DNA of 64,000 nt, taken from positions 283,030,001 through 283,094,000 of the forward strand of contig CM097882.1 of NCBI GenBank assembly GCA_044892505.1. Reading direction: 5' to 3'. This DNA comes from Schmidtea nova. Its lineage: Eukaryota. Below are positions 2 to 57,600 of the stretch, in pieces. Each line of letters starts with the position of its first letter. The stretch's first letter is position 1. The position numbers and the translations under genes are program-made. The notes beneath the pieces were generated by a model, which searched no databases, was not told where the DNA came from, and worked only from the letters and a program-made list of their open reading frames with translations.

Positions 2-3000
2 ATTGGATATATCTTTGTAAGTTATCGTCTTGGTTAGCGATTTTGTACACCATTCCCTAATATTCCTGAATAATGCTTCTTTTTCACTTTCGAATTTACA
101 CTCTTCTTTGTTTTTGGACATTATGATATTTCCTCTATCTAATAGCGTTAACAGTGTTTTCTGATCACAAACGAATTTTAATAGAAATCGTAATAACGCG
201 TTTTGTCCTTTGCTATATACTTCGTTTATATTTAACACCCATGTATCATTTTCGGATCTTTTCCATTTTATTAGCTTGCGTATTGTTTTGCAGTTACCGA
301 TTTTTATTGCTTCCTTTATTATATCACCTTTGATCAGTTCATCTATTTCCCAAGTGGCCTTCTCGATTATTTGTTTGAGCATTATCTGATTTGAGCTCCA
401 TATTGCGTGATTCAAGACTGTTTTGTTTTCTCTATCGCGTTCTGTCCAGTTGAAATCGGCATTTATCAAAAGGTCTATTATTGCTTTATCCGATTTGTAG
501 ATGGCTGCTACCATTAATGGTGTTTCTTGTTCGCTATTCCCAAAACCAAGGTGTTGGTTTGTTTCCTTAGCGATTTTTAGAAATTCTTTTACTCTCTCTA
601 CTTCTCCCCATTTTATGGCGTTATGTAATGCTGGTTGTCCTCCTATGTCTTCTAGTGAAAGTATTTCTGGAATCTTTTCCAGTAGTTCTGAAATGACTGG
701 TTTTGTTGGTAGTCCCCTTGCGTAATCACTAATTATCGACTGAATATCTCTTAATATATCGTCTCTGAAATGCCATTTTCCCATTATTTCTCTGGCTTTT
801 AGTACAATTTCCTTGTTTCTTTTTTCTCGTTGATTGTTCTCTGCTTCGGTGCTTTCATTGGTTGCTCTGAGCATATTCATTCTGGCTGTCTGGGATCTGG
901 TTATTATTCGTTCTTCTGGCGCTGTGGTTATTGTCTTTGGTACTTTTTTACATCTGCATGTATTAACGTATATTGGTCGTATCAATGGTCGATTAACAAG
1001 TTTTACCTTCACATTGTTTTCCTTTTTGTATATAACTTCGTAAGGGCCTTTTCCTGGTCTTTGTAGTTTTTTAACGGTTCCTGGTATTATTTCTGGGGTT
1101 TCTATCATTACCCAATCTCCGGGTTTAAGATCATTTGTTTTAACATTTTTCTTTTGATCGTGTAGGTCCTTGTAACTTTCTTGATAAAACTTTATGTTTA
1201 GTTCTGCTGTCTTCCATATCTCTTGCATTCGTTCTTTGAATTTGGTGACGTAATCATCTTCCTCCATATATTGAGACAAAGGTGGTTGATATTCAAGATC
1301 TATTGGCATATTGCATTCCCTTCCATACATTAATTGAAATGGACTCAATTTTGTTGCTGCGTGTATCGACATTCGGTATGCCATTAGACATAGCTTTATG
1401 TACTCATCCCAATCTGTTTGGTGTTTGCTTACATAATTGGATAACATTCGAATCAATGTGCCGTTAAATCTTTCCGTTTGTCCATTAGTTTGCGGATGAT
1501 ATGGTGACGTTCGTAATTTGGCTATTCTGAAGTAATTTGTTACTTCATCTAGTATTTCGCTCATAAAATTTGTTCCTTGATCTGTTAGTATTTGTTTCGG
1601 GGTTCCGTATCGACAACATATTTCCTCTACTAAAATTCTTGCTACGGTCTTTGCTTTTTGATCCGGCATCGCAAATGCTTCAGGGAATTTAGTCAAATAA
1701 TCCGTTATTACCAATATATATTGATTCCCGTTTAAACTTTCTGGCAATGGTCCTATTACATCCATCGCAATGGTAGTCATTGGTTCCGCTGGTATTGGCA
1801 TGGGTTTTAAGGGATTTTTCCATTTCTTCCCACTATCCTTTCTTGTGGCACAAGTTAAACAGTTCTTTATCCATTCCTTTACGTCTTCGTCCATTGTTGG
1901 CCAATAATATTTTTGTCTCATGCGATTTAATGTTTTCTTATCGGACATGTGTCCTCCCAACTTTCCGTCATGGTATTGAGTTATTATCTCTTTTCGTCTA
2001 TTACCTGGCAGACACATTAATCGTTTCTCTCCATCTCGTATTAATAACCATCCTTTTTCTATTGTGTATCGATGTTGGTATTTCCTCATGTGTTCCTTTA
2101 ACTCTGCATTGTCTTTGAATACATCCATATTTCGTGAGCTTAGGAATTCTATGATGGGTCTTAGTTCTTTATCCTCTTGCTGATCTTTCTTTAACTCACT
2201 GAAATCCAAATCCTCTGCTATCATTATGCATATTCTTTGCACTTCTGGGTCTGTTAGTTCTGGAAACGTTAATCTTGACATGCAATCTGCGTTGGCATTC
2301 GCTTTTCCTGATTTGAATTTTATATCTGGTGAATATTCTTGTAATTGCATCGCCCATCTCATTAATCTGCTGGATGTTTCCTTATGTTGTCCTAGCCATA
2401 CAAGTGGTTGATGGTCTGTGGTTATGCATATGACGTGTCCCCATAATAGATATTTGAAGTGTTTTATTGCTAATATTATTGCCAATGCTTCTCTTTCCGT
2501 TACTGAATAATTCTTCTCGTGTTTCTTGAATGTTCTGCTATAATATCCGATTACCCGCTCTTTTCCCTCGTCATCATATTGTCCTAACACTGCTCCTGCT
2601 GCATATCCACTTGCGTCGGTTGCGAGTAAAAATGGCTTTTTGAAGTCCGGGTGAACCAATATTGGTGCAGTTATTAGCTTATCTCTCAATGTTTCAAAGG
2701 CTGTTTGTTGTTCGCTTCCCCATATGAACGATACGTCTTTCTTTACTAGCTCCTGGATTGGTTTTGCAATCCCTGCGTAATCCTTTATGAATTTTCTATA
2801 GTAACCGCATAATCCGAGAAATTCTTGGATCTGCGTTATCGTCTTTGGTACTGGACATTCTTTTACTTTATCAATGTTTCTGGGATCTGGTTCCTTTCCT
2901 TTTGCGGACACAATATGTCCTAAGAATGTCACTTTCTCCTTTGCCCAATCGCATTTCGATGGTTTGAGCTTGAGTTTCCATTGTCTCAATCTAACAAATA

Positions 3001-6000
3001 CATCTCTGATATCTTGGATGTGTTGTTCAAATGTGCTTGAGTAGATCAGTAGGTCGTCAATGTAAACCATGCATTGTTTTATGCCGTGGGTAACGAAATT
3101 CATACATCTTTGAAATGATGCTGGCGCATTGGTTAGTCCGAATGGCATTTTCCTAAATTGGTACAAGTCTCTTCCGATAGTGAAAGCAGTTTTCTCTTTG
3201 TCTTCCTCCTTCATTTTAATTTGCCAGTATCCGCTTTTCAAATCTAATGATGTAAAGTATGCCGCTCCTTGTAATGTCAATAACATCTCGTTGATGTCTG
3301 GTAATGGGTATGTATCCCTTTTTGTAACTGTATTTAATCTCCGATAATCAATACAAAATCGTTGTGTTCCGTCTTTCTTTTTCACCATTACAACTGGGAA
3401 TTGCCACGGTGAGCAGCTTGGTTCAATTACTTCTGCGTCTAGCATTTTCTGTACCTCTGCTTCTGCTACTGATTTTTGCGCTTCAGCTAACTTGTATGGT
3501 CTTAAAGCAATCGGCGTTTCGTCTGTTAGTGGAATCGTATGTAGTGTGACGTCACATGTCCCTAGATCTAAATCGGATGCCGCGAATATGTCTTTATATT
3601 CTATCAGTAATCTTTCTAGCTGTTTCTTTTGATCCTCATTCAATAGTTGGCTATCAATGTTCCAAGTGGGTTCTTCCTCTTTTACTCCTTCTTTTATTGG
3701 TATTTCGATATCTATCATTGGAGTTAGTTTACCTAATCTTTCATTTTCATAAATTATTTTATCCTCTTCATCGAAATTTACTACATTTATTGGGATTTCT
3801 CCGTTGTCATTCGCACTCACTAATCCCCTTGCCATTGGCAACGACTTTCTCTTTTCAAATCTTTTACTGGGTTCAAAGATCATGTCACCTTCTATTGTAG
3901 GATCTATTTTTACGAAACATATTTTCTCTCTCCGTGCTGGTACGATTATTTGTTTCGAACTTGTTACTTTTGCTTCTATTGCGCATATCTGTCCTGTCCT
4001 ATCCTTCAATCTCATTGTTCCGAGGTCAATAACTATTTCTTTAAATAATGCTGGCATTAAATCTGTGCCTATAATGCATGGTACGCTTAGTGCTGGTATT
4101 ACTGCTACGTACGTTTCGATTTCCGTGTTTTGATGTTTTATCTTTACCCACCATCTTCCGGCAACTTCTACTACTTCTTTACTGCATGCTATTACGTGAA
4201 CGTTGGTTCTCTCGATATCCCGTCTTTGTTCTTGTGGTATCCATTTTATATCTATTGCTGAGATATTTGCTCCTGTATCGATCATCGCTTCTATTTCCCT
4301 TCCGTTAATTTCGATTGTTGTAGTTAATACTGGACCGGTGTTTGATGACATTACTGCAATTGTATGTGAGTCTCCTTGCGGATCTACGCTTCTGCACCGT
4401 CTCGTTCTATAGTCTTCTGGTATCATAGGATATATGTTTGTCATCGGCATCATTTGCATTGTATTTTGTCTCATCCCTGGTGTTGGTTCTTGGTACATGG
4501 TTGGTGGGGGTGCGTAACACTTCCACATTTCCGCTGGATTCTTTTCGACATACTGTGGTACTTGATTTTTAAATACTTGACCTCCTTCGTTATCATCATC
4601 ATCGTCGTCACTGGAATCGTCTTGGGTTCTGTACCCTTTCATTCTTTCCCATAGTCCTTTTCTCTCTTTCTTTAGTTGTTGTCTTGCTTGCTCGTTATTC
4701 ATTATCTTTTTAAATTTTCGTCCCACCTCTTCATCGGTTCCTTTCATTTTTGCCAGTATTTTTAGGAGTCTCTTTATTCGGTGAATATCTTTTGAATGAC
4801 CGTGTAATACCATTGTTTTAGCCAAAAATGGTAAGAATCCTACCACCAATTTCCAATTTACTTTCTTTTCTCTTTTATAGATGTCAAAACAGGCTAACAT
4901 TTGCGTTATTATTACCCGTATTATTTGTATAATTAGTATAACACCAAGTATTCCTGCCATCATTTGTCCAAATATTAAAAATCTTCCCCACATCGCTTTC
5001 ATCATGTTTTCCGTTGCCTTCTTAAAGTGGGCTGGTGACAATAATAATTCGTAATTTGGTCCACTTTGGTAATTTGTTCCTCCTGTTATTGTTACAATAC
5101 TGGATAACACCGCTTCTCGTCTTGCCGGAAATAGTATGTTTTGTCTTGCTGCTTCTAAATCCTTTGCACTATAGAATCCCATATTGCTTACATCTACGTC
5201 TTTAAATTTTCGTCCTTTTGATAGTTGCATTAATTCAAATTCTCTTGGTGCTGGTACCTCTGTTCTTGACGGAAACATAACCCAATTTCCGTCTGGTTTT
5301 TGGTATAGTGGTCCATATGCGTTGCTACAATTGAAAGGGTTTGGTTCGAAACTTACTGGATTTATGATTCTTGTCACTGGTTGTACATATCTTACTTTCC
5401 CTTTATATTCGATTTCTAGTTCGTTAGTACACTGACCTGGTTGTAGTTTTGTCATTGTCGCTACCTTCGCATTTGTCTTTTTACATATGTATACGTACAT
5501 GACCTCTCCGACTACTCTTCCAAAATGACCTTCTCTTAATGGTAATAATGGCATTGCACTATCCGGGTTTGTGATTGCTACTGCTAATTTTGTCTTTAAT
5601 ATTTCCCTATTTAATATGCAATCGTTGTTTATTAAATCGTAATACACTTTTTGTAGTGACGCTTGTCCTCTATGGAATAGAAAATCCATTTTATTGTTCA
5701 TGTAAAGGTGTAATTTAACATCGTTCGTGTGTACTTTGCGTTTCGCACTAGGTACTTCTTGTTTTGATACAAAAATGCCGGGGTAGTTGGTTTCCAACAT
5801 GGCTACTCCGCATTTCAAGGCTGTTTTTCCTTTTACAAACCTCATTCCGATATCTGCATCTGAGGTAATTAGTACCGTTGGTGTATTTCTCATTTTAATT
5901 TGTTTTTCTTGTGTTCGGGTTTCAATCTTTTTCTCTCCCCGTACTGTGTCTTGAAGTATTTTTCCTCTTGCTGCCTCGTCTTCTTCTTCCTCTTGGAAGG

Positions 6001-9000
6001 TTTTCCCTTGTATCTCATCGAATTCTGCTTCCTTTAACAGTTGTAGTTGACATTCCTTCCCTCGTATCTGGTAGGTTAGGGTTGACATACCAGTCTGACA
6101 AGTGTTTGACTCGATTTTGCACATAGGTAGAGTTTTCATTTCTCCCGTCGTTGGATCGAAGAATGCCTCGTACGTTTTTAGTTCCACTGTATACGTATCT
6201 ATTACCACTAGGTTTGTTGCTGCTACTCCGAATATTGGATATGTTGCTCCTTGGCAGTACCCTTCTCCTCCCGTAATAGCTCCTGCTACATAATATGTTT
6301 GTTGCAATATCACTCCCGTTTTTCCTCTTATCTTTACTCTATCTCTAGTCTCTACTTCTCCATGTTTAAATAATTTTTCACAGTCTTCTCCTTGCAGCAT
6401 TACCGATTCTCTTTCCGTTCCTGGCATCACGATTGCTGAATAATGGCGGTGCCCACAATAAAAAGCAAATCTGGTTTTATAAACTTTGCATTCTCTGACC
6501 ATTGTTCTTATCAGTTCAGCTTCCTGATATACGTGGTATAATTGTCTCTTTTTTAATGTTTTTAGCTCCGTTGGGGTTGCGTCTTTACATTGTTCTGTCC
6601 CTCGTAATGAGTATTTTTCACCTAATGCCATTTGATCACAATCGAATACTTCAAATGCTGTTGCTCCGTCAGTACTAATCATCCATATTAATATCATCAT
6701 AATGATAGAACTCAGGTTTAGTGATGATTTCCCGTTTCCTGTTCCCGACTTTTCCTTTTCCAATTCTCCCAATATCTCTTCGAATTTCTTTTTCATATTT
6801 TTGGCTTGGTTTTTCTTTTGGTTCGTTTTTGTGAATGTTTCCCATCCTCCTTTACTGATGATGTACGGTTCTATTTCTTTCTCTATAATTTTGGCTGTAT
6901 TCTTTATATGTCTTTCAAGTGCTGTGGGTTTCAGTCGACCTCTACTCAGTGTCAGCAGATTGTAGATGGTGTATGCCATAGCTATTAAATATTTGTTATC
7001 CGTCTCTGCTCCTTCCGTTACCTTCTTTATCAACATCGTGGTTCCTTGCCAATCTAGGTGGTTTGACCTTGTCTTCTCTTTTATTAATTCTGGTAGGATT
7101 GGTGCGATGGCGCTATGCAGTGATTTCGCCCTTTCGCTTATTTCATTTATTCTCCACCATTTCTTTAATTCTGGATCGATTATTGCCAGTATTTCCATTA
7201 ACATCTTTGATATCCATTCCTCGCCTTGGTATGTTTGTGTTGTTTCTTTTTCTTTCGTTTCGGCTATTTTATTTAGTTTCTTTAAACACAAATCCCATTG
7301 ATCCCGTCTTTTTTCCTCTCTTGATTTTATAACTACATTTGCTGGATCCATCTTGGGTCTACCTCTAGGTCGTTTATCCATTGTCGTGCCCGTTTCTACT
7401 AATCTTGTTTCTCGTCCAGTTTCTTCTGTGACGTCTCTTGGTTCATTGGCTCTTTCTTCTAACCATCTTTCCATTTCTTGTGTGAATTGTACGTTTTCTA
7501 CATTTGCCCTCCTTGCTTCCTCTTCTGCTATTTCATTTACTTCTTCTATGATTATTTCTTGTTCGACTTCATCTTCGGTGTTGGTTACCGGTATTGCTGT
7601 TGGTAATTCTTGAATTCTTTCGAAAATATTATCATCTTTCTCTTTTGTTAGCTCTATTAACTCCTCTAACATATCATCGCTATCTGTAAAAATTTCGTCT
7701 TCATCGTATGGTTCCGGTGGTGTTCTTTCTCTTGTCTCTCTTGGTGTTGTTCTAGTTTGTTCTGAGCTTGTTCCTGGAGTCATTACCGATTTCATTGGGC
7801 TCGGCGTACTCATACTTCCTTTTGGTTTCTTTTCCTCTTTCAATTTCAATGGTTGGCCTGCTATTGCTGCCACTGTCAATGTATTTGCGATATCTAATTG
7901 CGCTGGCGTTATTCCAATTTCCAAGCTGTTATCTAATGATCGTCCTTGGTGTTGTAAATGGAATGGTGGTTCATATCTCAATTTCTTTTTAATGTCTCGA
8001 ACTTTCTCCGCTATCCCTACCCAAAACTCTTCCTTTTCTTGGTTCGGATATACTATTCTTAGGTGTACTTTCTGTGGCGATTCCTGCGAGAATTCTTGGT
8101 TTCTCCATTTTTTAATTACGTGATCCAATTGTTCTGGACACCACTCGTTAACTCTTTTGTATTCGGCGATTGCTTTTGCTACTTTACGCAAGCATGTTAT
8201 GTCTTCTCCATTAACTACGAAAAAATCTGCGAGACCTTTTACTACTTTTCTCTTGCCGTGCGCATTGGTTTTTAATATTTCGACAAATTCCTCTGTTTTT
8301 TGTTTCTCTCTTTCCAACCACATGGTTGCCGTTTCTGGTCCGTCTATATCAGCTGGCATGGCTTTTCTTGTTACCATACAAACCCTTCCCGTTTCCGGTT
8401 TGTGATCGTCTTCTATGCCTATTTCGTATTCCTCTTCGTATTCGCCTGCTTTTGGTTCCCAACATTTTCCTCGTTCGTTCCACCGTTTTTCTACAGGTGT
8501 TCGTAATCGTCTGTTGAGATTGAGTTCTTCTAATACATCTTCCCATTCTGGCCAAATCCGCCAATTTCGATAAATGTCTACTATTTGTTGTAATTTATGC
8601 ACAACTTCTTTTTGTCGTTCCCGTTCTCTTTTCTCATCCTTAGCCGTTTCTCTTGGTGTATCGTCCATTCTGATAACGTGGATGGTTTGGTGATTATCCC
8701 ATATACCAATTTTATATAGCCGTCTTTCATCGTGATCCCATAATACATGTTCGTTGTATTTCATGATTATGTCATCTTCCCATTCTTCTTCTGGTTCTCT
8801 TTGTAATAGTGTCTCGTTGATGACATTTACTAATTCTTTTATGGTACAATCTGCTACCACTTCAATTTCTTTGGTATCCTCATTAGGTAACTCTACTGCA
8901 ATTTTCAGATCTGTTATTTTCCCTTGTCTGAACATTGCTTTTCCCATTTTGGCAATTACTTTTCCGTATGAGATCTGTGACCATCTCGTGTGACTTGTGT

Positions 9001-11701
9001 CACGTATGCACTCGATACATCGTTTCAACTTTTTGTATTCGCTTCTCATTAACTCCTTTCTATGTTTTTTGATTTGTGGGATGATTTGTTCTATCATGGA
9101 ATTTAGATTTCCTCGTAAGATTCGTCCTTTCTCATATTCTAACCGTGGTTTTATCTTCTTCTCGAAACACGTATTTGCTTCCTTTGCTACTTCTTGTAGG
9201 TTCTCTTCTCTCTTATCATCGCATATCGATAATGTTGTCACCTCTCCTGGCCATATGCCTGTTTCTATCAAATGCGTCCTTTTCTTCACTAGTCCATTCT
9301 GTGAATAGAGGAATTTGTTTTTATATGAACTCCCTAATCTATCCTCTACCCATTGGTAAATATCTTCCGTGAGTGGAGTTTTGATCCAAATCCTTGGCAA
9401 ACATGTTTTTATCTCTATTAGGATTATATATTCATGGAGTGGTTCTTTTAATAATTTTCCTAGGTATTGGCTTAGTGTTTCTACTTCCCGGCCTGGTAAC
9501 CACTCTTTATAGTTCATTTGTAATATCGCTCTCATGAATTTCCGATAGTGTTTCTTGTCGATGAACTCCTCATTATATATTACTTCTAGCGCGTTATCTA
9601 ATAATTTCTGGATCTCGTCCTCTTTTACTTGAATAGTTTCTGGCGTCTTTACTACTTCTATCTTTTTGTCTTCAATTTCCGGTTCGTTTAGCATATCTCC
9701 GGCTAGACTACTGACGTCACTATCCTCTTCGTCATCTGAAAAATTCTTTGCCTGGCCTCTCAACATGTTAATGTGTTTTATCTGGTTGATTTCACTTGGT
9801 GTATTTTCCGTTGATCTTGTTTCACTTTTAATAGCTTTTTGTGTTGATTCACTCTTGTCGTCTACTACTTCGACCTTTCTCAATTTTCGTTCTAACTCGT
9901 CTATTTCTCTCAACCGTCTTCGTATCATTTTCCCTTTAAATATTCGACTGATTCGTGTTTCGTGACGCACTGGCGATGGGATTCCTTCTGGTTCTATTTC
10001 CTTGATTACCATCACATTTCTTTTTGTCTCTACTACTCCCATGTTTTCCCATGTATCCGTTAGTTTCAATTTTACTTCTGGTGCACCTTCTATTTTTAGG
10101 AATGCTTCTCTGGGCAGTTTCGTTACTCCTGGAGCCATTTCATTCACTTTATTGAACAATATTTCTACTTCTTCCTTTATGTTATATTGGAATCGAAACA
10201 CGTGCTTGTTTGGCAAAATTACCATCATTCCTCTTTTCCCGAGTTTCCTTTTCTCTTCTTGGTTCCCTTCTTTTTCTACTTCCTTTTCTGTTTCTTTTTC
10301 TGCTTCTTCGTCTTCTTGTATTATCTCTTTTCGGCCTTCGTTGTTGGTTGGATTCGAGTTTGTTGGATTTATTTCTGGTACAGTCTCTTTCTCGTGGGTA
10401 TTTGTTTGATTGGTTGCTCTCATCATATTAATTCTTAGAGGTTGTCGTTCTCTTTCTTGCTGTTTTTGTTCCTCTTCTCTTTGTATTCTTGCCCATTCCT
10501 GAGCATGTCGTGCTTGACTTTCCCGATTCAATCGTTCGTTTTCGCTTTCTATTTTTCTCATCATATTGATTTGTTGTTGACCTGTTTGCGGATTTCCTCT
10601 GTTTGTATTGTTTATCAGCTCCGTCAATCTTTGAACCTCTTGCATTAAATGTATCTCTTTAGTGGTATTTTTATTTTGGTTATTATTATTACTATTTGGT
10701 TGGTTTCCGTATTCCGGTTGGTTTCCATTATTTGGCTGATTTCCATAATTCTGTCGGTTTCCACCAGTTGGTTGGTTTCCATAGTTTTGTCGGTTTCCGG
10801 TATTCTGCCAATTTCCTCGTTGATTGCTTCTTTGTCCGCAATTTCTTGATAGGTGTCCAGGTCGTCCACAATTAAAACAGGTTATTGTGTAACATCTGCT
10901 CTCTGAATGCCCTTTTACTCCACATTTTCCACAATTCAAGTTCTGATAACATTCTTGTTGCCAATGTCCCAATTTCCCACATGTTTTGCATTGTTTCGTT
11001 GGTCCTTGGGGGTTGTAATTGTTTTGATTTCCGTAATTTGATACTTTATTCCCTTCATTCCTTCGTTGCGGTGGTGGTCGGTTTAATTGTTGTGAATTTG
11101 GGATGTGGTTATTCAGGTTCACTTCTTGTTCGTTTTGTGCTGTATCCATAGCTAAATAGATTCTACCATCATTTCCTATCATGTGTAGTTCAAATCTATT
11201 AGCTGTTTCTAGTGCTTGGTCGATGGTTTTACAACCTTGGCATCCAACTTGCGCTCTTATGTCGGGTCTTCTTAATCCTCCCACAAAGATAGCTGCCATT
11301 AACTCCTCATTTATTGGACTGTCTTGATTGAAAATCAACTTTGCTAACTTTTTTAATTCGCTTGCATATACCGCATTCGATTCATTTATCTTTTGTTTCC
11401 TCATTGAGAATTCCGTGAATGCCTCATTCAATACTTTGTTTATTCCAAAGGTTTGTTGGAAAAAGTCCTTTATCGCTGACCAACTTGTAGGTGGATTAGT
11501 TCCATTTTTTGCTTCCAAATATAGATCTAATGCGCTATCTTTCAAATATAGCTGAATTCTGCTTACAGTTGTTTCTGGTTTCCACTTGCATACTTCCACG
11601 AATATGCCAAATTCCTTTAAGAAAGTTTCCAGTTTACTCGCATCTCCATTAAACGGTTCTCCGGAAAATTTGTCTTTTATCTCTTCTCTGGGTTCGCTCA
11701 T
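2..11701 (-). CDS. Single Gag-Ubl-Bcl2-Env-PR-RT-RH-IN-ankyrin polyprotein, at least 3900 aa, open at the window edge
   Basis: Anchor codons all share one frame (lowest codon coordinate = 2 mod 3): ATG 11699-11701, CCHC 10865, Ubl 8885 and 8063, GGW 6842, FYCG 6452, DTG 4277, YIDD 3053, GGH 1949, ankyrin 623. No ORF ending in this frame is listed in the track, consistent with no stop before position 1. The frame is open upstream to a TAA at 12161-12163. Confidence 0.9.
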   Translation of the reverse strand, partial: MSEPREEIKDKFSGEPFNGDASKLETFLKEFGIFVEVCKWKPETTVSRIQLYLKDSALDLYLEAKNGTNPPTSWSAIKDFFQQTFGINKVLNEAFTEFSMRKQKINESNAVYASELKKLAKLIFNQDSPINEELMAAIFVGGLRRPDIRAQVGCQGCKTIDQALETANRFELHMIGNDGRIYLAMDTAQNEQEVNLNNHIPNSQQLNRPPPQRRNEGNKVSNYGNQNNYNPQGPTKQCKTCGKLGHWQQECYQNLNCGKCGVKGHSESRCYTITCFNCGRPGHLSRNCGQRSNQRGNWQNTGNRQNYGNQPTGGNRQNYGNQPNNGNQPEYGNQPNSNNNNQNKNTTKEIHLMQEVQRLTELINNTNRGNPQTGQQQINMMRKIESENERLNRESQARHAQEWARIQREEEQKQQERERQPLRINMMRATNQTNTHEKETVPEINPTNSNPTNNEGRKEIIQEDEEAEKETEKEVEKEGNQEEKRKLGKRGMMVILPNKHVFRFQYNIKEEVEILFNKVNEMAPGVTKLPREAFLKIEGAPEVKLKLTDTWENMGVVETKRNVMVIKEIEPEGIPSPVRHETRISRIFKGKMIRRRLREIDELERKLRKVEVVDDKSESTQKAIKSETRSTENTPSEINQIKHINMLRGQAKNFSDDEEDSDVSSLAGDMLNEPEIEDKKIEVVKTPETIQVKEDEIQKLLDNALEVIYNEEFIDKKHYRKFMRAILQMNYKEWLPGREVETLSQYLGKLLKEPLHEYIILIEIKTCLPRIWIKTPLTEDIYQWVEDRLGSSYKNKFLYSQNGLVKKRTHLIETGIWPGEVTTLSICDDKREENLQEVAKEANTCFEKKIKPRLEYEKGRILRGNLNSMIEQIIPQIKKHRKELMRSEYKKLKRCIECIRDTSHTRWSQISYGKVIAKMGKAMFRQGKITDLKIAVELPNEDTKEIEVVADCTIKELVNVINETLLQREPEEEWEDDIIMKYNEHVLWDHDERRLYKIGIWDNHQTIHVIRMDDTPRETAKDEKRERERQKEVVHKLQQIVDIYRNWRIWPEWEDVLEELNLNRRLRTPVEKRWNERGKCWEPKAGEYEEEYEIGIEDDHKPETGRVCMVTRKAMPADIDGPETATMWLEREKQKTEEFVEILKTNAHGKRKVVKGLADFFVVNGEDITCLRKVAKAIAEYKRVNEWCPEQLDHVIKKWRNQEFSQESPQKVHLRIVYPNQEKEEFWVGIAEKVRDIKKKLRYEPPFHLQHQGRSLDNSLEIGITPAQLDIANTLTVAAIAGQPLKLKEEKKPKGSMSTPSPMKSVMTPGTSSEQTRTTPRETRERTPPEPYDEDEIFTDSDDMLEELIELTKEKDDNIFERIQELPTAIPVTNTEDEVEQEIIIEEVNEIAEEEARRANVENVQFTQEMERWLEERANEPRDVTEETGRETRLVETGTTMDKRPRGRPKMDPANVVIKSREEKRRDQWDLCLKKLNKIAETKEKETTQTYQGEEWISKMLMEILAIIDPELKKWWRINEISERAKSLHSAIAPILPELIKEKTRSNHLDWQGTTMLIKKVTEGAETDNKYLIAMAYTIYNLLTLSRGRLKPTALERHIKNTAKIIEKEIEPYIISKGGWETFTKTNQKKNQAKNMKKKFEEILGELEKEKSGTGNGKSSLNLSSIIMMILIWMISTDGATAFEVFDCDQMALGEKYSLRGTEQCKDATPTELKTLKKRQLYHVYQEAELIRTMVRECKVYKTRFAFYCGHRHYSAIVMPGTERESVMLQGEDCEKLFKHGEVETRDRVKIRGKTGVILQQTYYVAGAITGGEGYCQGATYPIFGVAATNLVVIDTYTVELKTYEAFFDPTTGEMKTLPMCKIESNTCQTGMSTLTYQIRGKECQLQLLKEAEFDEIQGKTFQEEEEDEAARGKILQDTVRGEKKIETRTQEKQIKMRNTPTVLITSDADIGMRFVKGKTALKCGVAMLETNYPGIFVSKQEVPSAKRKVHTNDVKLHLYMNNKMDFLFHRGQASLQKVYYDLINNDCILNREILKTKLAVAITNPDSAMPLLPLREGHFGRVVGEVMYVYICKKTNAKVATMTKLQPGQCTNELEIEYKGKVRYVQPVTRIINPVSFEPNPFNCSNAYGPLYQKPDGNWVMFPSRTEVPAPREFELMQLSKGRKFKDVDVSNMGFYSAKDLEAARQNILFPARREAVLSSIVTITGGTNYQSGPNYELLLSPAHFKKATENMMKAMWGRFLIFGQMMAGILGVILIIQIIRVIITQMLACFDIYKREKKVNWKLVVGFLPFLAKTMVLHGHSKDIHRIKRLLKILAKMKGTDEEVGRKFKKIMNNEQARQQLKKERKGLWERMKGYRTQDDSSDDDDDDNEGGQVFKNQVPQYVEKNPAEMWKCYAPPPTMYQEPTPGMRQNTMQMMPMTNIYPMIPEDYRTRRCRSVDPQGDSHTIAVMSSNTGPVLTTTIEINGREIEAMIDTGANISAIDIKWIPQEQRRDIERTNVHVIACSKEVVEVAGRWWVKIKHQNTEIETYVAVIPALSVPCIIGTDLMPALFKEIVIDLGTMRLKDRTGQICAIEAKVTSSKQIIVPARREKICFVKIDPTIEGDMIFEPSKRFEKRKSLPMARGLVSANDNGEIPINVVNFDEEDKIIYENERLGKLTPMIDIEIPIKEGVKEEEPTWNIDSQLLNEDQKKQLERLLIEYKDIFAASDLDLGTCDVTLHTIPLTDETPIALRPYKLAEAQKSVAEAEVQKMLDAEVIEPSCSPWQFPVVMVKKKDGTQRFCIDYRRLNTVTKRDTYPLPDINEMLLTLQGAAYFTSLDLKSGYWQIKMKEEDKEKTAFTIGRDLYQFRKMPFGLTNAPASFQRCMNFVTHGIKQCMVYIDDLLIYSSTFEQHIQDIRDVFVRLRQWKLKLKPSKCDWAKEKVTFLGHIVSAKGKEPDPRNIDKVKECPVPKTITQIQEFLGLCGYYRKFIKDYAGIAKPIQELVKKDVSFIWGSEQQTAFETLRDKLITAPILVHPDFKKPFLLATDASGYAAGAVLGQYDDEGKERVIGYYSRTFKKHEKNYSVTEREALAIILAIKHFKYLLWGHVICITTDHQPLVWLGQHKETSSRLMRWAMQLQEYSPDIKFKSGKANANADCMSRLTFPELTDPEVQRICIMIAEDLDFSELKKDQQEDKELRPIIEFLSSRNMDVFKDNAELKEHMRKYQHRYTIEKGWLLIRDGEKRLMCLPGNRRKEIITQYHDGKLGGHMSDKKTLNRMRQKYYWPTMDEDVKEWIKNCLTCATRKDSGKKWKNPLKPMPIPAEPMTTIAMDVIGPLPESLNGNQYILVITDYLTKFPEAFAMPDQKAKTVARILVEEICCRYGTPKQILTDQGTNFMSEILDEVTNYFRIAKLRTSPYHPQTNGQTERFNGTLIRMLSNYVSKHQTDWDEYIKLCLMAYRMSIHAATKLSPFQLMYGRECNMPIDLEYQPPLSQYMEEDDYVTKFKERMQEIWKTAELNIKFYQESYKDLHDQKKNVKTNDLKPGDWVMIETPEIIPGTVKKLQRPGKGPYEVIYKKENNVKVKLVNRPLIRPIYVNTCRCKKVPKTITTAPEERIITRSQTARMNMLRATNESTEAENNQREKRNKEIVLKAREIMGKWHFRDDILRDIQSIISDYARGLPTKPVISELLEKIPEILSLEDIGGQPALHNAIKWGEVERVKEFLKIAKETNQHLGFGNSEQETPLMVAAIYKSDKAIIDLLINADFNWTERDRENKTVLNHAIWSSNQIMLKQIIEKATWEIDELIKGDIIKEAIKIGNCKTIRKLIKWKRSENDTWVLNINEVYSKGQNALLRFLLKFVCDQKTLLTLLDRGNIIMSKNKEECKFESEKEALFRNIREWCTKSLTKTITYKDISN
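250..650 (-). other. Ankyrin-repeat region fused downstream of integrase (element 1)
   Basis: GQPALHNAIKWGEVREVKEFLK, EQETPLMVAAIYKSDKAIIDLLINADFNWTERD and ENKTVLNHAIWSSNQIMLKQII match the ankyrin TPLHxA...V.xLL pattern at about 33-aa spacing. Confidence 0.8.
1000..2000 (-). other. Integrase domain (element 1)
   Basis: YHDGKLGGH...CLTC zinc motif, AMDVIGPLP, LTDQGTNF, PYHPQTNGQTERFN, and C-terminal GKGPYEV. Confidence 0.97.
2290..3560 (-). other. Reverse transcriptase and RNase H (element 1)
   Basis: RFCIDYRRLN, LDLKSGYWQI, MPFGLTNAPASFQR, VYIDDLLI, FLGLCGYYRKFI, LATDASGYAAGAVL, YSVTEREALA, TDHQPL. Confidence 0.98.
3990..4330 (-). other. Retroviral-type aspartic protease (element 1)
   Basis: IEINGREIEAMIDTGANISAI ... 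CIIGTDLM. Confidence 0.95.
4800..6720 (-). other. Envelope glycoprotein, chuvirus-G / herpes gB-like (class III fusogen-like), element 1
   Basis: Hydrophobic signal SIIMMILIWMISTDGATA, then a Cys-rich ectodomain of about 550 aa (FEVFDC, YHVYQE, VRECKV..FYCGHRHY, NDCILNREILK..AITNP, GRVVGEVMYVYICK), then TM FLIFGQMMAGILGVILIIQII. Family assignment is from recalled motifs. Confidence 0.75.
6830..7300 (-). other. Bcl-2-like domain (element 1)
   Basis: BH2-like TAKIIEKEIEPYIISKGGWETF, preceded by BH1-like IKKVTEGAETDNKYLIAMAYTIY. It occupies the same position as a clearer copy in element 2. Confidence 0.6.
7860..10228 (-). other. Cluster of 2-4 ubiquitin-like/UBX-like beta-grasp domains (element 1)
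   Basis: About 8670-8910: LKIAVELPNEDTKEIEVVADCTIKEL...MKYNEHVLWD..RRLYKIGIWD..TIHVI. About 7860-8070: KVHLRIVYPNQEKEEFWVGIAEKVRDIKKKL..FHLQHQGRSLD. Weaker candidates at about 9225-9430 (LIETGIWPGEVTTL) and 10005-10228 (MMVILPNKHVFRF..LKLTDTWENMGV). Confidence 0.55.
10830..11701 (-). other. Gag (capsid-like region plus three CCHC zinc knuckles), element 1
   Basis: PFNGDASKLETFLKEF...YLKDSALDLY, then CKTCGKLGHWQQEC, CGKCGVKGHSESRC, CFNCGRPGHLSRNC. Confidence 0.93.
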
Positions 11702-12677
11702 TTCAATTCCGCTGTCTGTAGTTATTTTACTTTCGTTTCCTCTTGTTTCTAGTTCACTGTTAGGTTCGTCACTCGAATTTCGGTCGATCTCAGTTTCTTT
11801 TGCTGATTCGTTATCTGATGCTTTACTATCGTTATCGGTATCGTCACTTTCTGTTTCTTGTTCTACTTCGTCTTCTATTTCTTCTATATAATCGTTGTTG
11901 GTTTTGTCGACTTCTATTTCACTTATTGGGTTTCTCTCGGGTTCTGCTTGATTTTCTTTGTTGCTTGAACTGTTGCTTGTTACTGATAATTTATCGTTTT
12001 CGATAATCGACTTTTGTATTATTATCTGCCTTGCTTTACTTCCTTTTGGGCCTTTCTGATTATTATTCTTGGTAGCTTTATTCTTTTCTGCTGGTTTTAT
12101 TATGACACTCTTTTCTCCTTTTCTCAACGGAATTACTTTTGTATACTCAATTTTCCTGTCTTATCGTGTTCCGATTCTTTTCTTCCTTAGTTGATTGGTT
12201 TGGTTTGATTGATTTATCTAAAATACAAATGTCACTTCAACGATACTCTATTGTTATCGTTGCGCTTTTATTCCCTTTTTACGGGACTTCTCATTACTGG
12301 GTTTCTATTATTTTTCCCCATTCCCAGATTCCCCTTTATTTAAGTCTATTTAAATTATCTATATACTAGTCACAATTATCTATTTAGTCATAACAATTAT
12401 CTATCGGTTATTAAAATACATCAATTATTTTTCCCGCGGTCTCCCAATTTATTTGTCGTTCGAACGCTCTAATTCCCTGAGTCATTTGACTCGATTATTA
12501 TTTTATCATCTCTTTATCTTTCTCTCTGCTAGCCTCTAATTATTAATTCTGCCGGTCTTTCCGGTCAGCTCCTATTTCTCAATTCTACTTGCATGCATTA
12601 TTTTAGGTCGCATAATCAGCTTTACTCGCATTTCTCTATTATCGGTGCGCACTATTCTCATTATCGTCGACGATCAC

Positions 12678-13103: not shown

Positions 13104-13317
13104 AACCCTTTGTTTCAAGGGACAAACCGCTGATAACCCTTTGTTTCAAGGGACAAATTCTAATAACCCTTTGTTTCAAGGGACAAACCGCTGATAACCC
13201 TTTGTTTCAAGGGACAAATTCTAATAACCCTTTGTTTCAAGGGACAAACCGCTGATAACCCTTTGTTTCAAGGGACAAATTCTAATAACCCTTTGTTTCA
13301 AGGGACAAACCGCTGAT
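13104..13317. repeat. Alternating 31/30-bp tandem array (ABABABA) in the leader of element 1
   Basis: Core aaccctttgtttcaagggacaaa followed alternately by ccgctgat or ttctaat; unit starts at 13104, 13135, 13165, 13196, 13226, 13257, 13287. Confidence 0.95.
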
Positions 13318-13794: not shown

Positions 13795-14256
13795 TTATAA
13801 ATAAACTACAATTTTATCAGCTACAGAGAAATTGCACATGGGGCACTCATCACACTTATTCGCACAGTTTTTACAGAATCGAAAATGTCCACATGGTAAA
13901 AACATTATTTGGATTTCACTGTTTTCGCATATGTAACATTGTTTATATTGTTTTGCTGCCTCGACCCCTTGCGACATCCATCGGTTATATGTTAGGCTTA
14001 ACTGCTGTTCTATATGTCGGCATCTGATATTCAACTCGGCATCCTCTAATCGTGCTTTGTACCATTTATATCGCGTATTTATATCGAGTTTATTTACTTT
14101 CTCTATGATTTTTATTAACTCAGTTGTTTCCTCAGTTTGTGTCGTAGGTTCCTCATATTCGGATGCTCTTATTCGGGTTATTTTTTCGCAGACTGTCTCA
14201 AATGTTTCGTTCTCGGTGTTGAAAAATTCCTCGATTTCTTTCAGTTTTTCCTCCAT
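13795..14256 (-). CDS. IAP/MDM2-type C-terminal RING-HC protein (153 aa, no BIR domain) between PBS and gag
   Basis: CYICENSEIQIMFLPCGHFRFCKNCANKCDECPMCNFSVADKIVVYL-stop: C3HC4 spacing with the short hydrophobic tail typical of IAP RINGs; coiled-coil-like N-terminus. Confidence 0.85.
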   Translation of the reverse strand: MEEKLKEIEEFFNTENETFETVCEKITRIRASEYEEPTTQTEETTELIKIIEKVNKLDINTRYKWYKARLEDAELNIRCRHIEQQLSLTYNRWMSQGVEAAKQYKQCYICENSEIQIMFLPCGHFRFCKNCANKCDECPMCNFSVADKIVVYL

Positions 14257-14562
14257 TTCCTAGATAATTTATTTAATTACTGTGTTAATATTATTCGAAA
14301 AGTAGTACTGTGTTTCGTTTCTGACAGTTTTATAGCCTCCCCCCGTGTTTCGGTAAAATGTCGTCCCGACCTGTTATTTATGAATGCATTTGTTTAATTT
14401 ATCTACTAATTTGTTTTAATTCTCTGTTTGTAATTATCTATTTCCACGCAACTCACTCTTATCTCGATTACTCTTTCGGTTACTATTTCTACTCACAAAA
14501 TTCTGATTTTAAATTTCTCTGTTGTCATTGGGTTCACATTTTCCGCATAAAAACAAAGTTGA

Positions 14563-14580: not shown

Positions 14581-15114
14581 AATTTATGCTGGGATTATGG
14601 GTGGGTTTTAAGTAATTCAAATAAACAATTAATCATACTAGGGATTCCGCGCCCATAACCATACATAACATGACTACTACACGCGTATGCCCTTGACTAT
14701 TCCCTACTAGTCAAGTTGGTACTGCATACGGTGGTGGAAAAATGATGGGCAGGTGAGCTTTGTCGCCAAAACTACTCCCCATTTATCTTCCCTCGGGTTC
14801 TTGCTGCCGATAGAAGGTCTTACGCATTTACATTCTATGGATGTTCGTTTCTTACTGCATTTTATACTACATATACTTATGATCTATCACACGCTTTTCC
14901 CAATGACGCTCTCCCTCGCTGTTCTACAAGCCGACGAAAACTCTCGCTGCTAAGCAACGGTCGGTGTAGGTTTTACGATGCGATTTTCAGTTCTACGAAT
15001 TACTTATGTAGTCTTATTTTATTTAGTGAAATCACAAGATGAGAGAAAAAATTTACCCAGTAATACTTTTATTGAAATAATAAAGACAGGTTGTTATTTT
15101 ACATTGAGGTTTTC

Positions 15115-15699
15115 CTATTCAAACTCCAGGCTAATCTCCTGGATTAACTCTGCTTCGGTTAAGGAATTCAGGTGGTGGATTTGTTCGTCCAGGCGCTTTG
15201 CAAATTCTCGGCGACGACGGCGCTGTCGCGATCCCATTCGATGTTTTCGAAGCTGTTGGTTTATGACCGGTGCTGACGCTATTATTCTCGGGGGATCACT
15301 GAGAAAAATGGGCAAATCTTCCGTTGTAAGAGTGGGTGCCATGATGATATCATCTTCTGTCCCGCAAGCGACATCTTGGTGAGTGCATGGTATCCAGCGC
15401 TGAGCCGTGATCGGCCGGATTAGCGCTCGCAATTCGGAGTCGATGTAACTTCTTGTTACTGCGTTCAGGCAATTTCGGAGTTCTCGCTGGACGGCATCCA
15501 GTTCCAATTTGGTTGTAGCCAATGCTTCCTGCACTCGCTCGAGTTTTTTCGACTGGTCCTTCATCTGTTCGGGCGAGAACCACTTCGCTTTCAATTCATC
15601 ATTGGCGACCGTGAGTCGCTTGATCTGTCGCTGCTGGTCCCTCAGCTTTCTCTCTTGAATTTGTCCCATGATTTTCTTCGAATTTTCTGAAGCCGGCAT
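15115..15699 (-). CDS. Unknown 194-aa coiled-coil protein with Arg-rich motif, inside the candidate LTR
   Basis: ATG-started ORF, GC-richer than its flanks, heptad-like N-half, RQRRRRR motif, and AATAAA on the minus strand at about 15068-15073. Confidence 0.55.
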   Translation of the reverse strand: MPASENSKKIMGQIQERKLRDQQRQIKRLTVANDELKAKWFSPEQMKDQSKKLERVQEALATTKLELDAVQRELRNCLNAVTRSYIDSELRALIRPITAQRWIPCTHQDVACGTEDDIIMAPTLTTEDLPIFLSDPPRIIASAPVINQQLRKHRMGSRQRRRRREFAKRLDEQIHHLNSLTEAELIQEISLEFE

Positions 15700-16015
15700 G
15701 TTGTCTGAAGATTATAACGATAAATCCACTGGAGGGCCTATCAATAATGTTATTTTATTTAAACAACTATTATTATTATTACACGAGATGTATATTAATG
15801 TTTTTAATTGTTGAGTTCTCTACAAAATTATTTAACTATCTAATCATTGAAGACTCAAAAGGTTTATTGAACTAATTTTATATTAATAAATGAATTTCCT
15901 AATGACTATAACAACTACAATACTAAATCTACATGACAACACTATTAACAAAACGAACATTTCAGAATTCTTTAAAACATTTATTTAATTTAAAAACAGG
16001 CGGCCATTGGTTCAG

Positions 16016-16492
16016 CTATTCATCCTCGGTCATTTTTCCTCGATACGAAAATACCGAGCGGATCTGCAAATTTGTATGGATTCCTGTGCTATTGGACGAG
16101 GCCTGCTGGAAACGGATTCTCTCAGCTTCTCGGAGGGGTCGGATGGCTGTATTGAACTTGAACCCCAATTCCTTGAAGGTAGAGGCTGGAATGAACCCCC
16201 AATAAATGACACATCTCGGGAATCCACCTTTGTCCAACATCATGATGAACCAGGCGGCGTGCCATGATTCGTATTCCTCGTCTGGAATGATTGGCCAACT
16301 AGCGCATCCCCGGTACCATACGTGATGCCGTGGATGGTCCCATACTGTAAATGGACAGGCGGTTTCGAGCTCTCGGCGCCATGCCCACATCTTTTGGTGA
16401 ATTTGCTGTAAAATCTCGAAAGGAGCCGGCTTTAATGGGCTAACTCGGGCTCGTTCTTGTCGTTTTTTGATAGTGTATCTATGCTTAGCCAT
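16016..16492 (-). CDS. Unknown 158-aa Trp/His-rich protein, inside the candidate LTR
   Basis: ATG-started ORF, GC-richer than its flanks, same strand as the element; no family recognised. Confidence 0.5.
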   Translation of the reverse strand: MAKHRYTIKKRQERARVSPLKPAPFEILQQIHQKMWAWRRELETACPFTVWDHPRHHVWYRGCASWPIIPDEEYESWHAAWFIMMLDKGGFPRCVIYWGFIPASTFKELGFKFNTAIRPLREAERIRFQQASSNSTGIHTNLQIRSVFSYRGKMTEDE

Positions 16493-18105
16493 GATTCCAA
16501 AATGATGCTGAATTTTATAATAGTTACAATTTACATCAATAATTAATCATAGTAAATGTTATCTCTCATCGTGATTCCCTTATTATTTGCCTTCCCCTTA
16601 GACCTTAGCTGAAATCAAGAAAAAACTGTTGTTTGTTACAGTATACATTACTCTCGTATCTACTTAGATTTATCTGTTTACGATCAAGTTGATAGACGAA
16701 AAATTGATGATTTGTCTGCTTGGATTTTCAAAATATTGGTACCTCAAAACGGAAACTCTCTCCCGTCATGTATCCCTAGTTTATTCGAAAAAACGCTCTT
16801 TTGTACCAAACGCGGTCGACATAATTTTCCTAAGGTTTATTAGACGTTTATTAAACAGCGGCGCTGTGGTGAGGGTGAAAAATTGTGCCTCCTCCCGGTT
16901 AACAACTTCTTTCATATCTTTAAGCTTTATCAAAAAATTCTCGTCCCCTCTGTAACTAAAATGATCAGAAAATAATTTCCCGGATTTGTTGGGTGTCCCA
17001 TGTGCAAGTCTCAACCACTACTAATAAAATTGTGCTTTACTATTTATTACTTTACCGTGTGTGGAGCCCTCGAGCACCACGCCACGGACGGACACCTTGG
17101 GAACCTAAAGCTCCCAACGGCGCAAAATTAATATGATCATTATATATTTTAATGTTGAGTCTAATCACAATAACGTTTAATTCATATAACAAATTTCAAC
17201 ACATGAATGCATAAACACATAAATAATTAGATCAATAGATAAATGACAAAGCAAATGACACAATCATGAATAAAATAATACAGAAACCAAAATACCTAAT
17301 TCGTCTGGGTTTGCTTCGATCGGTTCGTCTAGAATTCAAAGTCTATTTGATTAGTGAGCTAAATTTTACACTCTCAACTGACGTTGTAAGATTAGGTATT
17401 AAGTCTGTTTTATCCAAAGTCTGATCAGTATTTATACTGATCAGTCTGATCTAGACTGACCAATCGGATTTGGCCGATTTCATGGTGGGTTTTAATTATT
17501 GTTTTTGATTCTAATTAATTTTTATTTTTTAGATTGTATTCTTCCTTGGAGGTCCGGGTTTCAAAAACAATTATTCAATAACAAGTACTTTTATTTGGTT
17601 TTAATTATTATTATTTGTATTTTATTTGTTTTTAGATGTCTCCTGGGCCCGTTAATATCTATAAATTCATTTATTTTTATTTATAGCTTGTACTTAGTTA
17701 TTCTATATTTTTACTATATTATTCCTTTCTTTTAATAAATAAATATTCCCCTTTTTACCTTATTTTTCTCTTTTTTGTTTTAATTAATCTACTTTTATTT
17801 CATTTTTTTCTCTATTTGGCTGGCCCAACACAAATATCTTGATAAAATGTTAAATAACCTCAATATTAAATTACATTCATTGATTAAAACAAAAAAAAAC
17901 AGATTGATAAATAATAGGATTACAGACATATGGAGATAAGTTATAAGAAAATTAATATAATTAATACGGTATACATGTCAACCTGATATAGATCATTACA
18001 TTTTTAAACTCAAGGATGCCGGAAAACGGGATGACACTAAATATAGTAATTGTTATTTTGAACTGTTAAAAGTAGAAACTTTGATTAAAAACAAATATAA
18101 TTTAC

Positions 18106-45160: not shown

Positions 45161-45277
45161 TGTAAATTGGAGTAGGAAATTTTTTAAAATAGTGGTAAAA
45201 AAAGTTTTCAATTACGCACACACACCATCTCGGTTATGATACTCATCTGTCAATTACCTTTTGTTTGATATACATAT

Positions 45278-54696: not shown

Positions 54697-57600
54697 CCGG
54701 AAATAGCGTATATTCTATGTGCTGACAACACTTGCGATACTATCACTTTCATTGTTACTGCAATTACGTAGATTCCAATTAAACCGGCACAAGCTTGCCC
54801 TAAGAACATAAATTTACCCCAAATCTTTTCCATTGTTTTATATGTGGCTCTTTTGAAATGATCGGGTGTTAACAAATATTCGTAGTTAACTTTTCCTTCT
54901 CCATTTGGTAATATTGTATCAACCATTTCTGAAATTACCCTTTCCTTTTTTGATGGAAATAGCAAGTTTCTTTGAGCCTCTTCGATGTCTTCACTCGCAT
55001 ACAACCCCATTTGTGCCATTTTATTCAATGACGTAAAATTTACCAAATATTCTAAATTTGTTAGCTCTAATTTATCAGGAGTTTTAACTCCTCGGTAGTC
55101 TGGTAACGCTACCCATGAATCCGGCGTTAAGCGATATAACGGAGCAAGTAATCAATTACATTGTAATATTTTTGGTTTAGCCTGTACTTCGAGCAATATT
55201 CGAGTGATTGGTTCCATAAATCGTAACTTGCCACCAACACTTACGGGTAATTCATTCGTACATTGTTCATATTTCGCAATCTTTACAGCAACTTCCTTAC
55301 ATTTGAAGCTGTACAAAGCTTCTCCAAAAATTCTCGTGAAGACCCCACTTTCCGATATCAACATAGGTGCTACCAAATTTGGGTTTGTGACTGCCATAGC
55401 CATCCGATTTCGAAGAATCTCTTTATTTAATTTACAGTCATTTAGGATCATTTCTCTATATACATTCTCCATGACGTTCTGACTAAAATGGAATAAATAA
55501 TCAATTTTATTATTAAAATAGTGCGTTAATTTAATGTCGCCTGTATAAACTCTCGTTTTTGCGTCTTCAACTATTCCCTTTGATACATAGACACCTTTAT
55601 AATTTGTTGCATACACCACTCTTCCACATTTATTAGTAGGTTCCTTTTTTATGAAACGCATGCGGTCCGTTGGCGATGTTGACATCAACACTGCACTTGT
55701 TTGTCTGGTCATTATCGGAATCGATTTAATTGACTCTTTTGGTTTATAATTCAGAGCAAAACTATCAGGTCTTTCTTTGAATTGTTCTCCGATTATTTCT
55801 TTAAAATTCATTGTCTTTAAATGAGCCAAATTACATTTATTTACTTTAACATCATAAACTAAAATTGATTCTCCCGTTTGACAATTTGTCTGTTTCATAT
55901 TGCAAAATGGATGTGTTTGCAATTTACCTGTATCATCATCAAATGCTCCTTCGAACTCTCTCAATTCTGTAAGGTACTCTTCAAGTACTACCGTTTTATC
56001 CACAATTTTACCATCCATTTTATACGGTTCACCTTCGCAATCACCATTTGCTTTCATGGTTCCTTTCACAACTACTGTCTCTCTCGTTCTATGATTCAGT
56101 TTGGCTTTTAATCGAATTTCCGAACTTATTTTTAATTCTCCGGTTTGAAATGCTGTTAAACCATTTTCTGGAAAAATTTCAACGGGTCTAGGTATTGCTC
56201 TCACTTTTATCAATGACGTGTGACTCCATTTTCCACAATAAAACACAAATGTTGTATGTTTGACAATACACTCTCTAACTTTAGTTCGTCGTAAATCTGA
56301 CTCTTGATACACATGGTATTTTACATCATTTTCGATTTGTAATTTACTCGGATAGGCATCTGGGCATTCTGACATATCTACCACTGAGTAAATCTTTCCA
56401 ATTTCGGTTTGGGAGCAATCATATGCAACCAATGACGTCGCTTGTGCAATAACTGTACACAAGATAATCATTGTAAACATCAACCATGGGAATATTCCGA
56501 TTCTCTTTGTTTTCGAACTGACTTTATCACATAATTCTCTTGTCTTTTCCTCATTTTCTTTTATATCTAGTGGTGGACACAATATCTTCCAGCCACCCTT
56601 TTCTTTTACCCAATTTATTAAATATTCATTAAGCATCCTGGCTGCCGTATCTATTAAATCATCCAACTCTTTCGACTTTACAAACGCATACGTTCCTATC
56701 TCTAAAATCGCATACGTCAAACTCGTCAATACTACCTCCCTATTCACTTCCTTTTGGATCAACTCTTCAAAAACCTTTCTCTCACAGAAATTATTTCCTC
56801 TACCAAATCGTTGTACTACTTCAGGAAGCCTATTTTTCAATTCTTTGACTATCTCTTCCACATCTTCCTCCACTTGTAATTCTATCTTAAACATTGGATA
56901 TATCGTTTTAAGCAGATGCTTTAATATCTGTTTTGTTTCATCTACTTCTTTTTCAACTCTTACCAAATTTCTCTTTATTTCATACAAAGTTCTAGGTTTC
57001 CCATTTTTATTGCTAACTTCATTAAGCACATCTGATTTTTGTCTTTCCGCTTCCTGTACCTGATCTCTCACTATTGGATTCTTCTGAAAACTGCCATCTA
57101 TAATAGTCTCATTTTCTTCAGTTTCTTCGATTTCCTCTTCCCCTTCGTCTGATTCTGAATTATCTAATTCTTCCATTCTTCCTACTTGTACTTCCTTCAC
57201 CGCTACTATTCGATTTATTACATATCCATTACTTCCCTCCATACTTAAATATCCCTCTTCATTTACTTCTAACGGTAAACACCCGCAATCATATAGATAC
57301 TCGTCATCATCTAGCAGTTCCCCTTTATACCTCAACGTTATGATTCCATCCGTTCCTAACATTTTCGAAGCTCTTCTACGTACCCTTTTTACCTTTGTGC
57401 ACCAATGCTCTTCAGTATATTCCGTCTTTCCACGCTCTTCATAATCTATTGCTATAACTAAATGATTCTGCTCGACTCTGTCTTTTCTAAGCTCTTTACC
57501 CATTTTCCTCAATAAGCTTTTAAGCTTTTTACTGTATCTAGTTCTCCCAAATAAATATGGTCGTATTAAATTCGCGATTTCTACTTTATCTTTAGATTCA

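Follow-up and report, generated by a model that had tools for sequence, protein, structure and literature searches.

A Bcl-2-fold domain of a Burro-type retroelement in Schmidtea nova, likely captured once and possibly a membrane-anchored blocker of host cell death

Introduction

Burro elements of planarians carry a BCL2-like motif, and their env lies in frame between this motif and the protease (PR) (PMC6431247). A Burro-like element of Dugesia tigrina has an ORF1 of 5,140 aa with two CCHC knuckles (PMC6431247). The domain and its place before env are therefore already in print; in our literature search only PMC6431247 describes it, and Lee et al. 2026 or supplements may hold more. Errantiviruses with the order GAG-ENV-POL are reported from Platyhelminthes, Nematoda and Bryozoa in the available part of PMC13524379. 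As for cell death, the IAP of Burro1 reportedly shields stem cells from apoptosis (Lee et al. 2026, as cited in the accessible part of PMC13465017), and poxvirus Bcl-2 proteins with altered NWGR still bind BH3, according to an excerpt of PMC7719400.

Here we analyse a Bcl-2-like domain in element 1, one of two elements within a 64,000-nt stretch of the Schmidtea nova genome (hereafter the window). An earlier note on this DNA had described it as the second and more diverged of two such domains, the other belonging to element 2.

Results

Element 1 and its polyprotein

The features of the two elements are collected in Table 1. The polyprotein frame of element 1 has no stop between 12160 and the start of the window (4,053 codons) and continues for 1,086 codons in the adjoining stretch, giving 5,140 codons from stop to stop. 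Pfam matches follow the order CCHC knuckles, env, protease, RT, RNase H, integrase and ankyrin. The whole element measures about 28.3 kb, and this copy is young, because its 5′ and 3′ LTRs are identical (blastn matches of 2,647 and 599 nt with a one-base overlap, 100% identity). The RING finger of the accessory ORF is presumably of IAP type. A tandem repeat array of 30/31 nt occupies 13104-13320, between this ORF and gag, and the 5′ LTR itself holds two open frames, at 15115-15711 and 16016-16546 (-), of 198 and 176 codons, with no convincing Pfam match. Pfam gave no hit in element 1 for ubiquitin/SUMO-like or dUTPase-like motifs; weak ubiquitin hits were found in element 2 (E 0.027) and in the protein row P0006 (E 0.0046). 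Within env, the segment 6100-5800 (aa 2021-2120) is 57% identical between subfamilies A and B and its flanks 80-89%, which makes it a candidate variable surface region as judged from the sequence.

Element 2 belongs to family C. A repeat at 45273-45572 recurs at 60033-60332, 14,760 nt away and 99% identical, and the pair probably belongs to the LTRs of this element. Downstream of element 2, the frame 48166-49137 (-) has an exonuclease-like end, which we take to be of the DEDDh type; Pfam has no such hit there.

Table 1. Positions of the main features of elements 1 and 2 in the window
Feature	Position	Strand	Basis and remarks
Single polyprotein frame: gag (CCHC knuckles)-accessory region-Bcl-2-env-PR-RT-RH-IN-ankyrin	2..12160	(-)	ORF and Pfam; extends past the window
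Env, class III type fusion glycoprotein	4720..6655	(-)	Pfam PF24664, E 1.3e-71; far end approximate
Env TM	4963-4907	(-)	Hydrophobic-segment prediction
Internal env signal sequence: hydrophobic core and predicted signal-peptidase site	6656..6712	(-)	Small residues at -3/-1
Bcl-2-fold domain, predicted helices a1-a8	6821..7240	(-)	AlphaFold model, VIA-align range 31-172, profiles, alignment; fold extends over about 7240-6820
Extra predicted helix ahead of the fold, L-x-x-I spacing	7250..7321	(-)	Spacing common to six families; L19 and I22 near-invariant in alignment A2
Basic motif R-G-R-P, which we take to be AT-hook-like	7352..7375	(-)	Shared with families B and E and rows P0003 and P0006
Accessory ORF with C-terminal RING finger, between 5′ LTR and gag	13795..14259	(-)	Pfam zf-C3HC4_3, E 2.3e-11
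5′ LTR, 3,245 nt	14586..17830	(-)	blastn against the 3′ LTR beyond the window
Bcl-2 domain of element 2 (family C), homologous to that of element 1	56565..56963	(-)	Model pLDDT 79, Z 13.1; this copy split over several frames

Homology to the Bcl-2 family

With the Pfam profile PF00452, the element-1 domain scores 13.8 bits (E 0.085), under the curated cut-off of 31.4, and a copy of family E lies above it (33.6). A cellular-type profile was then built from 16 non-element rows, namely 13 host-type exons and 3 cellular-type proteins. It gives the element-1 domain 24.4 bits, a score reached by none of 2,000 shuffles (maximum 9.0), nor by any of 181 further segments taken from this polyprotein (maximum 8.9). 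A leave-family-out profile made from families C-F only yields 27.4 bits, where the null reaches at most 10.4, and a six-family profile finds Bcl-xL with an E of 2.4e-6. Some searches were empty: phmmer with the element-1 domain alone returned no PDB hit at E 10, and word-index protein searches gave 0 of 785 and 0 of 2,707 candidates.

The AlphaFold model of the element-1 domain is mediocre (pLDDT 64, pTM 0.62). When it was compared with 48,161 chains, the top 10 matches were all Bcl-2 family members (Z 6.6-8.0, aligned residues 31-172); the best was KsBcl-2 (rmsd 3.7 Å over 118 residues), with a Z of 8.0, a value in the range that the structure tool rates common among helical bundles. All 40 rows listed by Foldseek for this model against the PDB are Bcl-2 family, none of them at E <= 0.001; at that threshold neither model had a match in the PDB, nor had element 1 one in the viral library (best 0.28). 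The element 2 model (pLDDT 79) has a best match at Z 13.1, rmsd 2.8 Å and 129 residues, and its top 34 rows are of Bcl-2 fold. The element-1 domain is thus predicted to have the seven to eight helices of the fold around a central hydrophobic helix a5 (Z 8.0, with the mediocre model), and its homologue in element 2 reaches Z 13.1.

Compared directly, the two window domains show little similarity (BLASTP 22% over 142 aa, E 0.002; hhalign probability 40%; identity 14-22% across alignments), and the case for their homology is made by bridging families and by structural matches that they share. The structural comparison suggested in the earlier note was made through these shared matches, so that the agreement of the two domains as Bcl-2 folds is an indirect one. 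Its description of the element-1 domain as the more diverged holds on every scale used: 13.8 vs 19.8 bits with Pfam PF00452, 24 vs 34 bits with the cellular-type profile (element 2's family being scored via copy L111), and Z 8.0 vs 13.1.

Motifs of the domain

The two peptides quoted in the earlier note lie at 7039-6833 on the minus strand, inside the polyprotein frame. BH2 reads IISKGGW, with GGW at 6850-6842, and GGW is invariant in alignment A1. The BH1 position is more eroded, with T-D-N-K in place of N-W-G-R (7003-6992). The BH1 Trp occurs in none of the 17 element rows vs 11 of 13 host rows. The BH1 Gly is kept in 1 of 17 element rows, a loss that carries little weight because this residue is absent also from 11 of 13 host rows. 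The position of the BH1 Arg is basic in 14 of 17 element rows; families C, D, H, I, J and K have no basic residue there. In one family F copy, L071 (G000:C1:280918144-280918338), Trp stands at the BH1 position where four sister copies have Arg, either a chance change or an older state.

The extra helix predicted ahead of the fold was compared with the BH3 pattern, which includes Gly-Asp. It has BH3-like spacing and no Gly-Asp. The spacing is clearest in families E and F (L121 and L125, L-R-E-I-A), again without the Asp. Such a helix could fill a groove in trans.

Families and copies

A search of the genome gave 920 candidates, and all of the best 150, which were scored, match the domain: 83 copies belong to family A (92-100% identity) and 67 to family B (85-87%), whose longest frames reach about 5,650 codons. 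A stop falls inside the match in 4 of these 150 copies, a sample biased toward best hits. At least ten families in the genome, in three main groups, carry the domain, including compact ones whose frames measure about 3,000-3,400 codons; between groups the domains are 11-25% identical. The domain is present in every family sampled, most of which were found through the domain itself. The earlier note saw GGW and the position kept in two diverged families; with at least ten families compared, the position still holds, the domain standing 45-70 residues ahead of the predicted env cleavage site. A profile search of 1.84 billion proteins returned 13 hits, 10 of which are further element-type rows; six of the ten have env downstream and a seventh has gag upstream, while P0007, P0009 and P0011 come without context shown.

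In two further family pairs the domain diverges faster than env and pol: identities for domain, env and pol are 50, 82 and 89% between families C and D, and 43, 72 and 80% between E and F. The three regions each pair the six families alike. A copy designated L113 (G000:C1:352989731-352999700) departs from family C as far as BH2 (dS ~0.5) and shows no silent change from the linker on. From this pattern L113 reads as a recombinant with its crossover between the domain and the env signal; because the recombination point falls between BH2 and the signal, the domain appears exchangeable apart from env. The idea, raised by an apparent rise in dS at the domain start, that the domain travels with env-pol was ruled out, since the L113 domain goes with the gag side.

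Selection

The domain is under purifying selection. Between 11 copies of A and 10 of B its dN/dS is 0.066 (0.034-0.109), at a dS of 1.28 that is near saturation, and no bootstrap sample reaches 1. An unsaturated pair within family C gives 0.27 (0.15-0.47). Values of 0.13 for C-D and 0.19 for E-F were obtained at saturated dS, and two close pairs are uninformative. The earlier note had named a ratio of about 1 as the outcome that would speak against it; the ratios lie below 1 (A-B 0.066, the family C pair 0.27), and such low values are not specific to the domain. Indeed, all 18 polyprotein segments tested, low-complexity linkers included, have dN/dS well below 1, with 0.003 for RT, 0.060 for env and 0.13 for the acidic linker beside the domain; the A-B dN of the domain is 0.085 vs 0.09-0.10 in the neighbouring linkers. 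Within families, pN/pS is 0.12-0.16 in 37 copies, to which we give little weight because of how the copies were picked (30 as best protein-level hits, 7 as long open frames). This selection shows that the protein matters to the element, not that the domain acts as a Bcl-2.

Origin

The tree was computed from an alignment of 130 columns and 33 rows, in which each host row is one exon and the external rows had been retrieved by the element profile; its branches are long. All 17 element rows fall on one side of a branch with support 97/99 (99/99 under LG+G4). As the element copies form a single clade, one old capture from a cellular Bcl-2 gene followed by inheritance is the simplest history and, as far as the sequences indicate, a likely one. 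The phylogeny against host paralogues, by which the earlier note hoped to name the donor, leaves none singled out, because none of the seven candidate sister groupings was rejected (p-AU 0.16-0.46). A host Bak-type BH3 exon was not found in three upstream stretches. The host also has an expanded group of small Bcl-2-like genes without the BH1 Gly, related to P0013 (L066, L068, L072, L080, L086 and L089).

The earlier note had concluded that the domain is ancestral and selected rather than a one-off capture. Its age (at least ten families, 11-25% identity) and the purifying selection stand. The opposition of the two histories does not, because a single clade (97/99) fits one old capture that was then inherited. 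Taking identity and history jointly, we are confident that the element-1 segment is a strongly diverged, conserved Bcl-2-fold domain with this history of a single old capture.

The env signal

The domain sits in an open minus-strand frame just before the env signal, as first noted; counted from GGW (6850), the hydrophobic core (6712) is 46 residues away and the predicted cut 65. Across 18 rows, BH2 lies 45-79 residues ahead of this conserved predicted cut, and 17 of the 18 have small residues at -3/-1 (background 10%). The hydrophobic segment after the domain thus has the features of a signal peptide. Along the frame, 6712-6656 is the first strongly hydrophobic segment, followed by the env TM (4963-4907); from this order, Gag and the Bcl-2 domain are predicted to be cytosolic, env lumenal, and pol cytosolic again. 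In element 1's family the hydrophobic core is short, and the tail lies 43 residues from BH2 vs 17-24 in three cellular rows. About 975 residues upstream of the domain stands the last protease-site-like word of the K/R/Q-I-N-M type, and the domain is therefore probably the end of a large accessory protein.

Discussion

Our reading as a whole is that the Bcl-2 domain of this Burro-type element, captured once, serves as a membrane-anchored blocker of host cell death, an explanation that we consider evenly balanced. Cytosolic synthesis of the polyprotein would proceed as far as the internal signal, and this signal would direct env into the ER. A signal peptidase cut behind the signal would leave the Bcl-2 domain cytosolic with a C-terminal hydrophobic tail, as in the topology of cellular Bcl-2, so that the signal segment of env would double as the membrane anchor of the domain. 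The element protease would release the domain from Gag; in element 1's family the released piece would probably measure about 1,000 residues and end with the domain. The domain may then capture BH3 helices or pro-death Bcl-2 proteins of the host in a non-canonical groove, and the cell expressing the element would be kept alive. This anti-death mechanism, modelled as it is from sequence and predicted folds, is tentative and falls slightly short of an even call. Points in its favour are the fold, the tail, the RING ORF, the report on the Burro1 IAP and the basic residue that most element rows keep where BH1 has Arg. Against it stand the BH1 Trp, gone from 17 of 17 element rows, the basic residue missing in one family group, and the ER anchor; a signal-derived anchor would place the domain in the ER, not on mitochondria.

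Since the NWGR of BH1 is lost, a non-apoptotic role is conceivable. Vaccinia A46, A52, B14 and K7 are Bcl-2-fold proteins that block host immune or stress signalling, and the element domain might likewise be a Bcl-2 fold with a closed groove acting in this way. The loss of the NWGR and BH3 signatures is consistent with such a blocker, as are the faster divergence of the domain relative to env and pol in two family pairs, the presence of A52, B14, N1L and A46 among the structural matches, and the ankyrin cargo of the element, to which TRAF/MATH can be added for Burro (PMC6431247). These poxvirus proteins rank low, however, at Z 5.0-7.0 vs Z 12-13 for BH3-binding Bcl-2 proteins with the better model, that of element 2, and BH2 and the membrane tail are well preserved, so that we regard a closed-groove signalling blocker as unlikely.

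A structural role in particle assembly is improbable. In this case the domain would serve Env as a leader in the cytosol and link the polyprotein's Gag side to the membrane, for which the leader peptides of foamy viruses offer a parallel. The position ahead of the signal is constant in 18 rows, and no other strong hydrophobic segment occurs upstream within the frame. Yet the signal by itself would provide the tether, the crossover of L113 between BH2 and the signal indicates that the domain can be swapped apart from env, and gag-env-pol elements of other phyla are described with no occurrence of Bcl in the available text of PMC13524379. We find it very improbable that the domain is a passenger, retained only for the polyprotein frame and its folding: the low dN/dS of all 18 segments, linkers too, would suit this, but upkeep of the frame would not preserve a fold of 140 residues with its GGW across families 11-25% identical, the domain is in every family sampled (though most were found via the domain), and A and B have no fixed amino-acid difference across the 17 residues of helix a4. 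Independent captures by different families, or chance resemblance, which the mere 14-22% identity of the window domains could suggest, are largely refuted and barely credible given the single clade of the 17 element rows (97/99; 99/99 under LG+G4), the same family pairs from domain, env and pol, and null tests (shuffles and other polyprotein segments) far below the score of the domain.

The anti-death reading can be drawn out further. An ancient clade of viral-type Bcl-2 proteins belonging to planarian env-carrying retroelements, captured once, stripped of NWGR and ER-anchored by the env signal, might act through a non-canonical interface, in ER death, calcium or immune signalling, as a second arm beside the element's IAP that keeps host stem cells alive; in this full form it is speculative and rather unlikely. 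If the domain does block cell death, it would correspond, in a retroelement, to the Bcl-2 proteins that DNA viruses carry, and would be a second anti-death factor beside the Burro1 IAP, itself reported, in the portion of the source available, to aid regeneration.

Among known systems, the GAG-ENV-POL errantiviruses with an HSV/gB-type Env share the gene order and the class III type env with element 1, as far as PMC13524379 was accessible, whereas its main text, to the same extent, has no mention of Bcl or Burro. The cellular Bcl-2 family (PF00452, including the 13 host-type exons) shares the helix pattern and BH2 (I/V-x-x-x-GGW); unlike it, the element-1 domain is without NWGR and without the BH3 Gly-Asp, scores under the Pfam cut-off and has no identifiable sister paralogue. 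The viral Bcl-2 proteins of dsDNA viruses (KsBcl-2, BHRF1, A179L, M11L and F1L), as presented in the accessible part of PMC11209288, resemble it in their compact fold, eroded BH motifs and C-terminal hydrophobic tail. According to that same part they are products of stand-alone genes with tested BH3 binding, whereas here the domain belongs to a retroelement polyprotein and has a predicted cleavable env signal as its tail.

The closest likeness is to the Burro/GYPSM1 giant gypsy-like elements of planarians, with their single ORF, Gag, two CCHC knuckles, BCL2-like motif, in-frame env, pol and ankyrin. The ubiquitin/SUMO-like and dUTPase-like motifs of the Burro description, for which HHpred was used, have no Pfam hit in element 1, and the section concerned names the BCL2 motif without structure, selection or tree (PMC6431247). 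Burro-type elements are giant LTR elements of about 30 kb with many copies, and element 1 agrees in size (28.3 kb) and copy number. The ORF has 5,140 aa both here and in the Burro-like element of Dugesia tigrina; because these lengths are equal, element 1's family is probably that family or a very close relative. Unlike in the Dugesia tigrina element, the domain is also found here in compact families with frames of ~3,000-3,400 codons. Our finding adds no new system, since Bcl-2 cargo is already on record; what it adds is support for a whole folded domain, one likely capture, and its retention by at least ten families.
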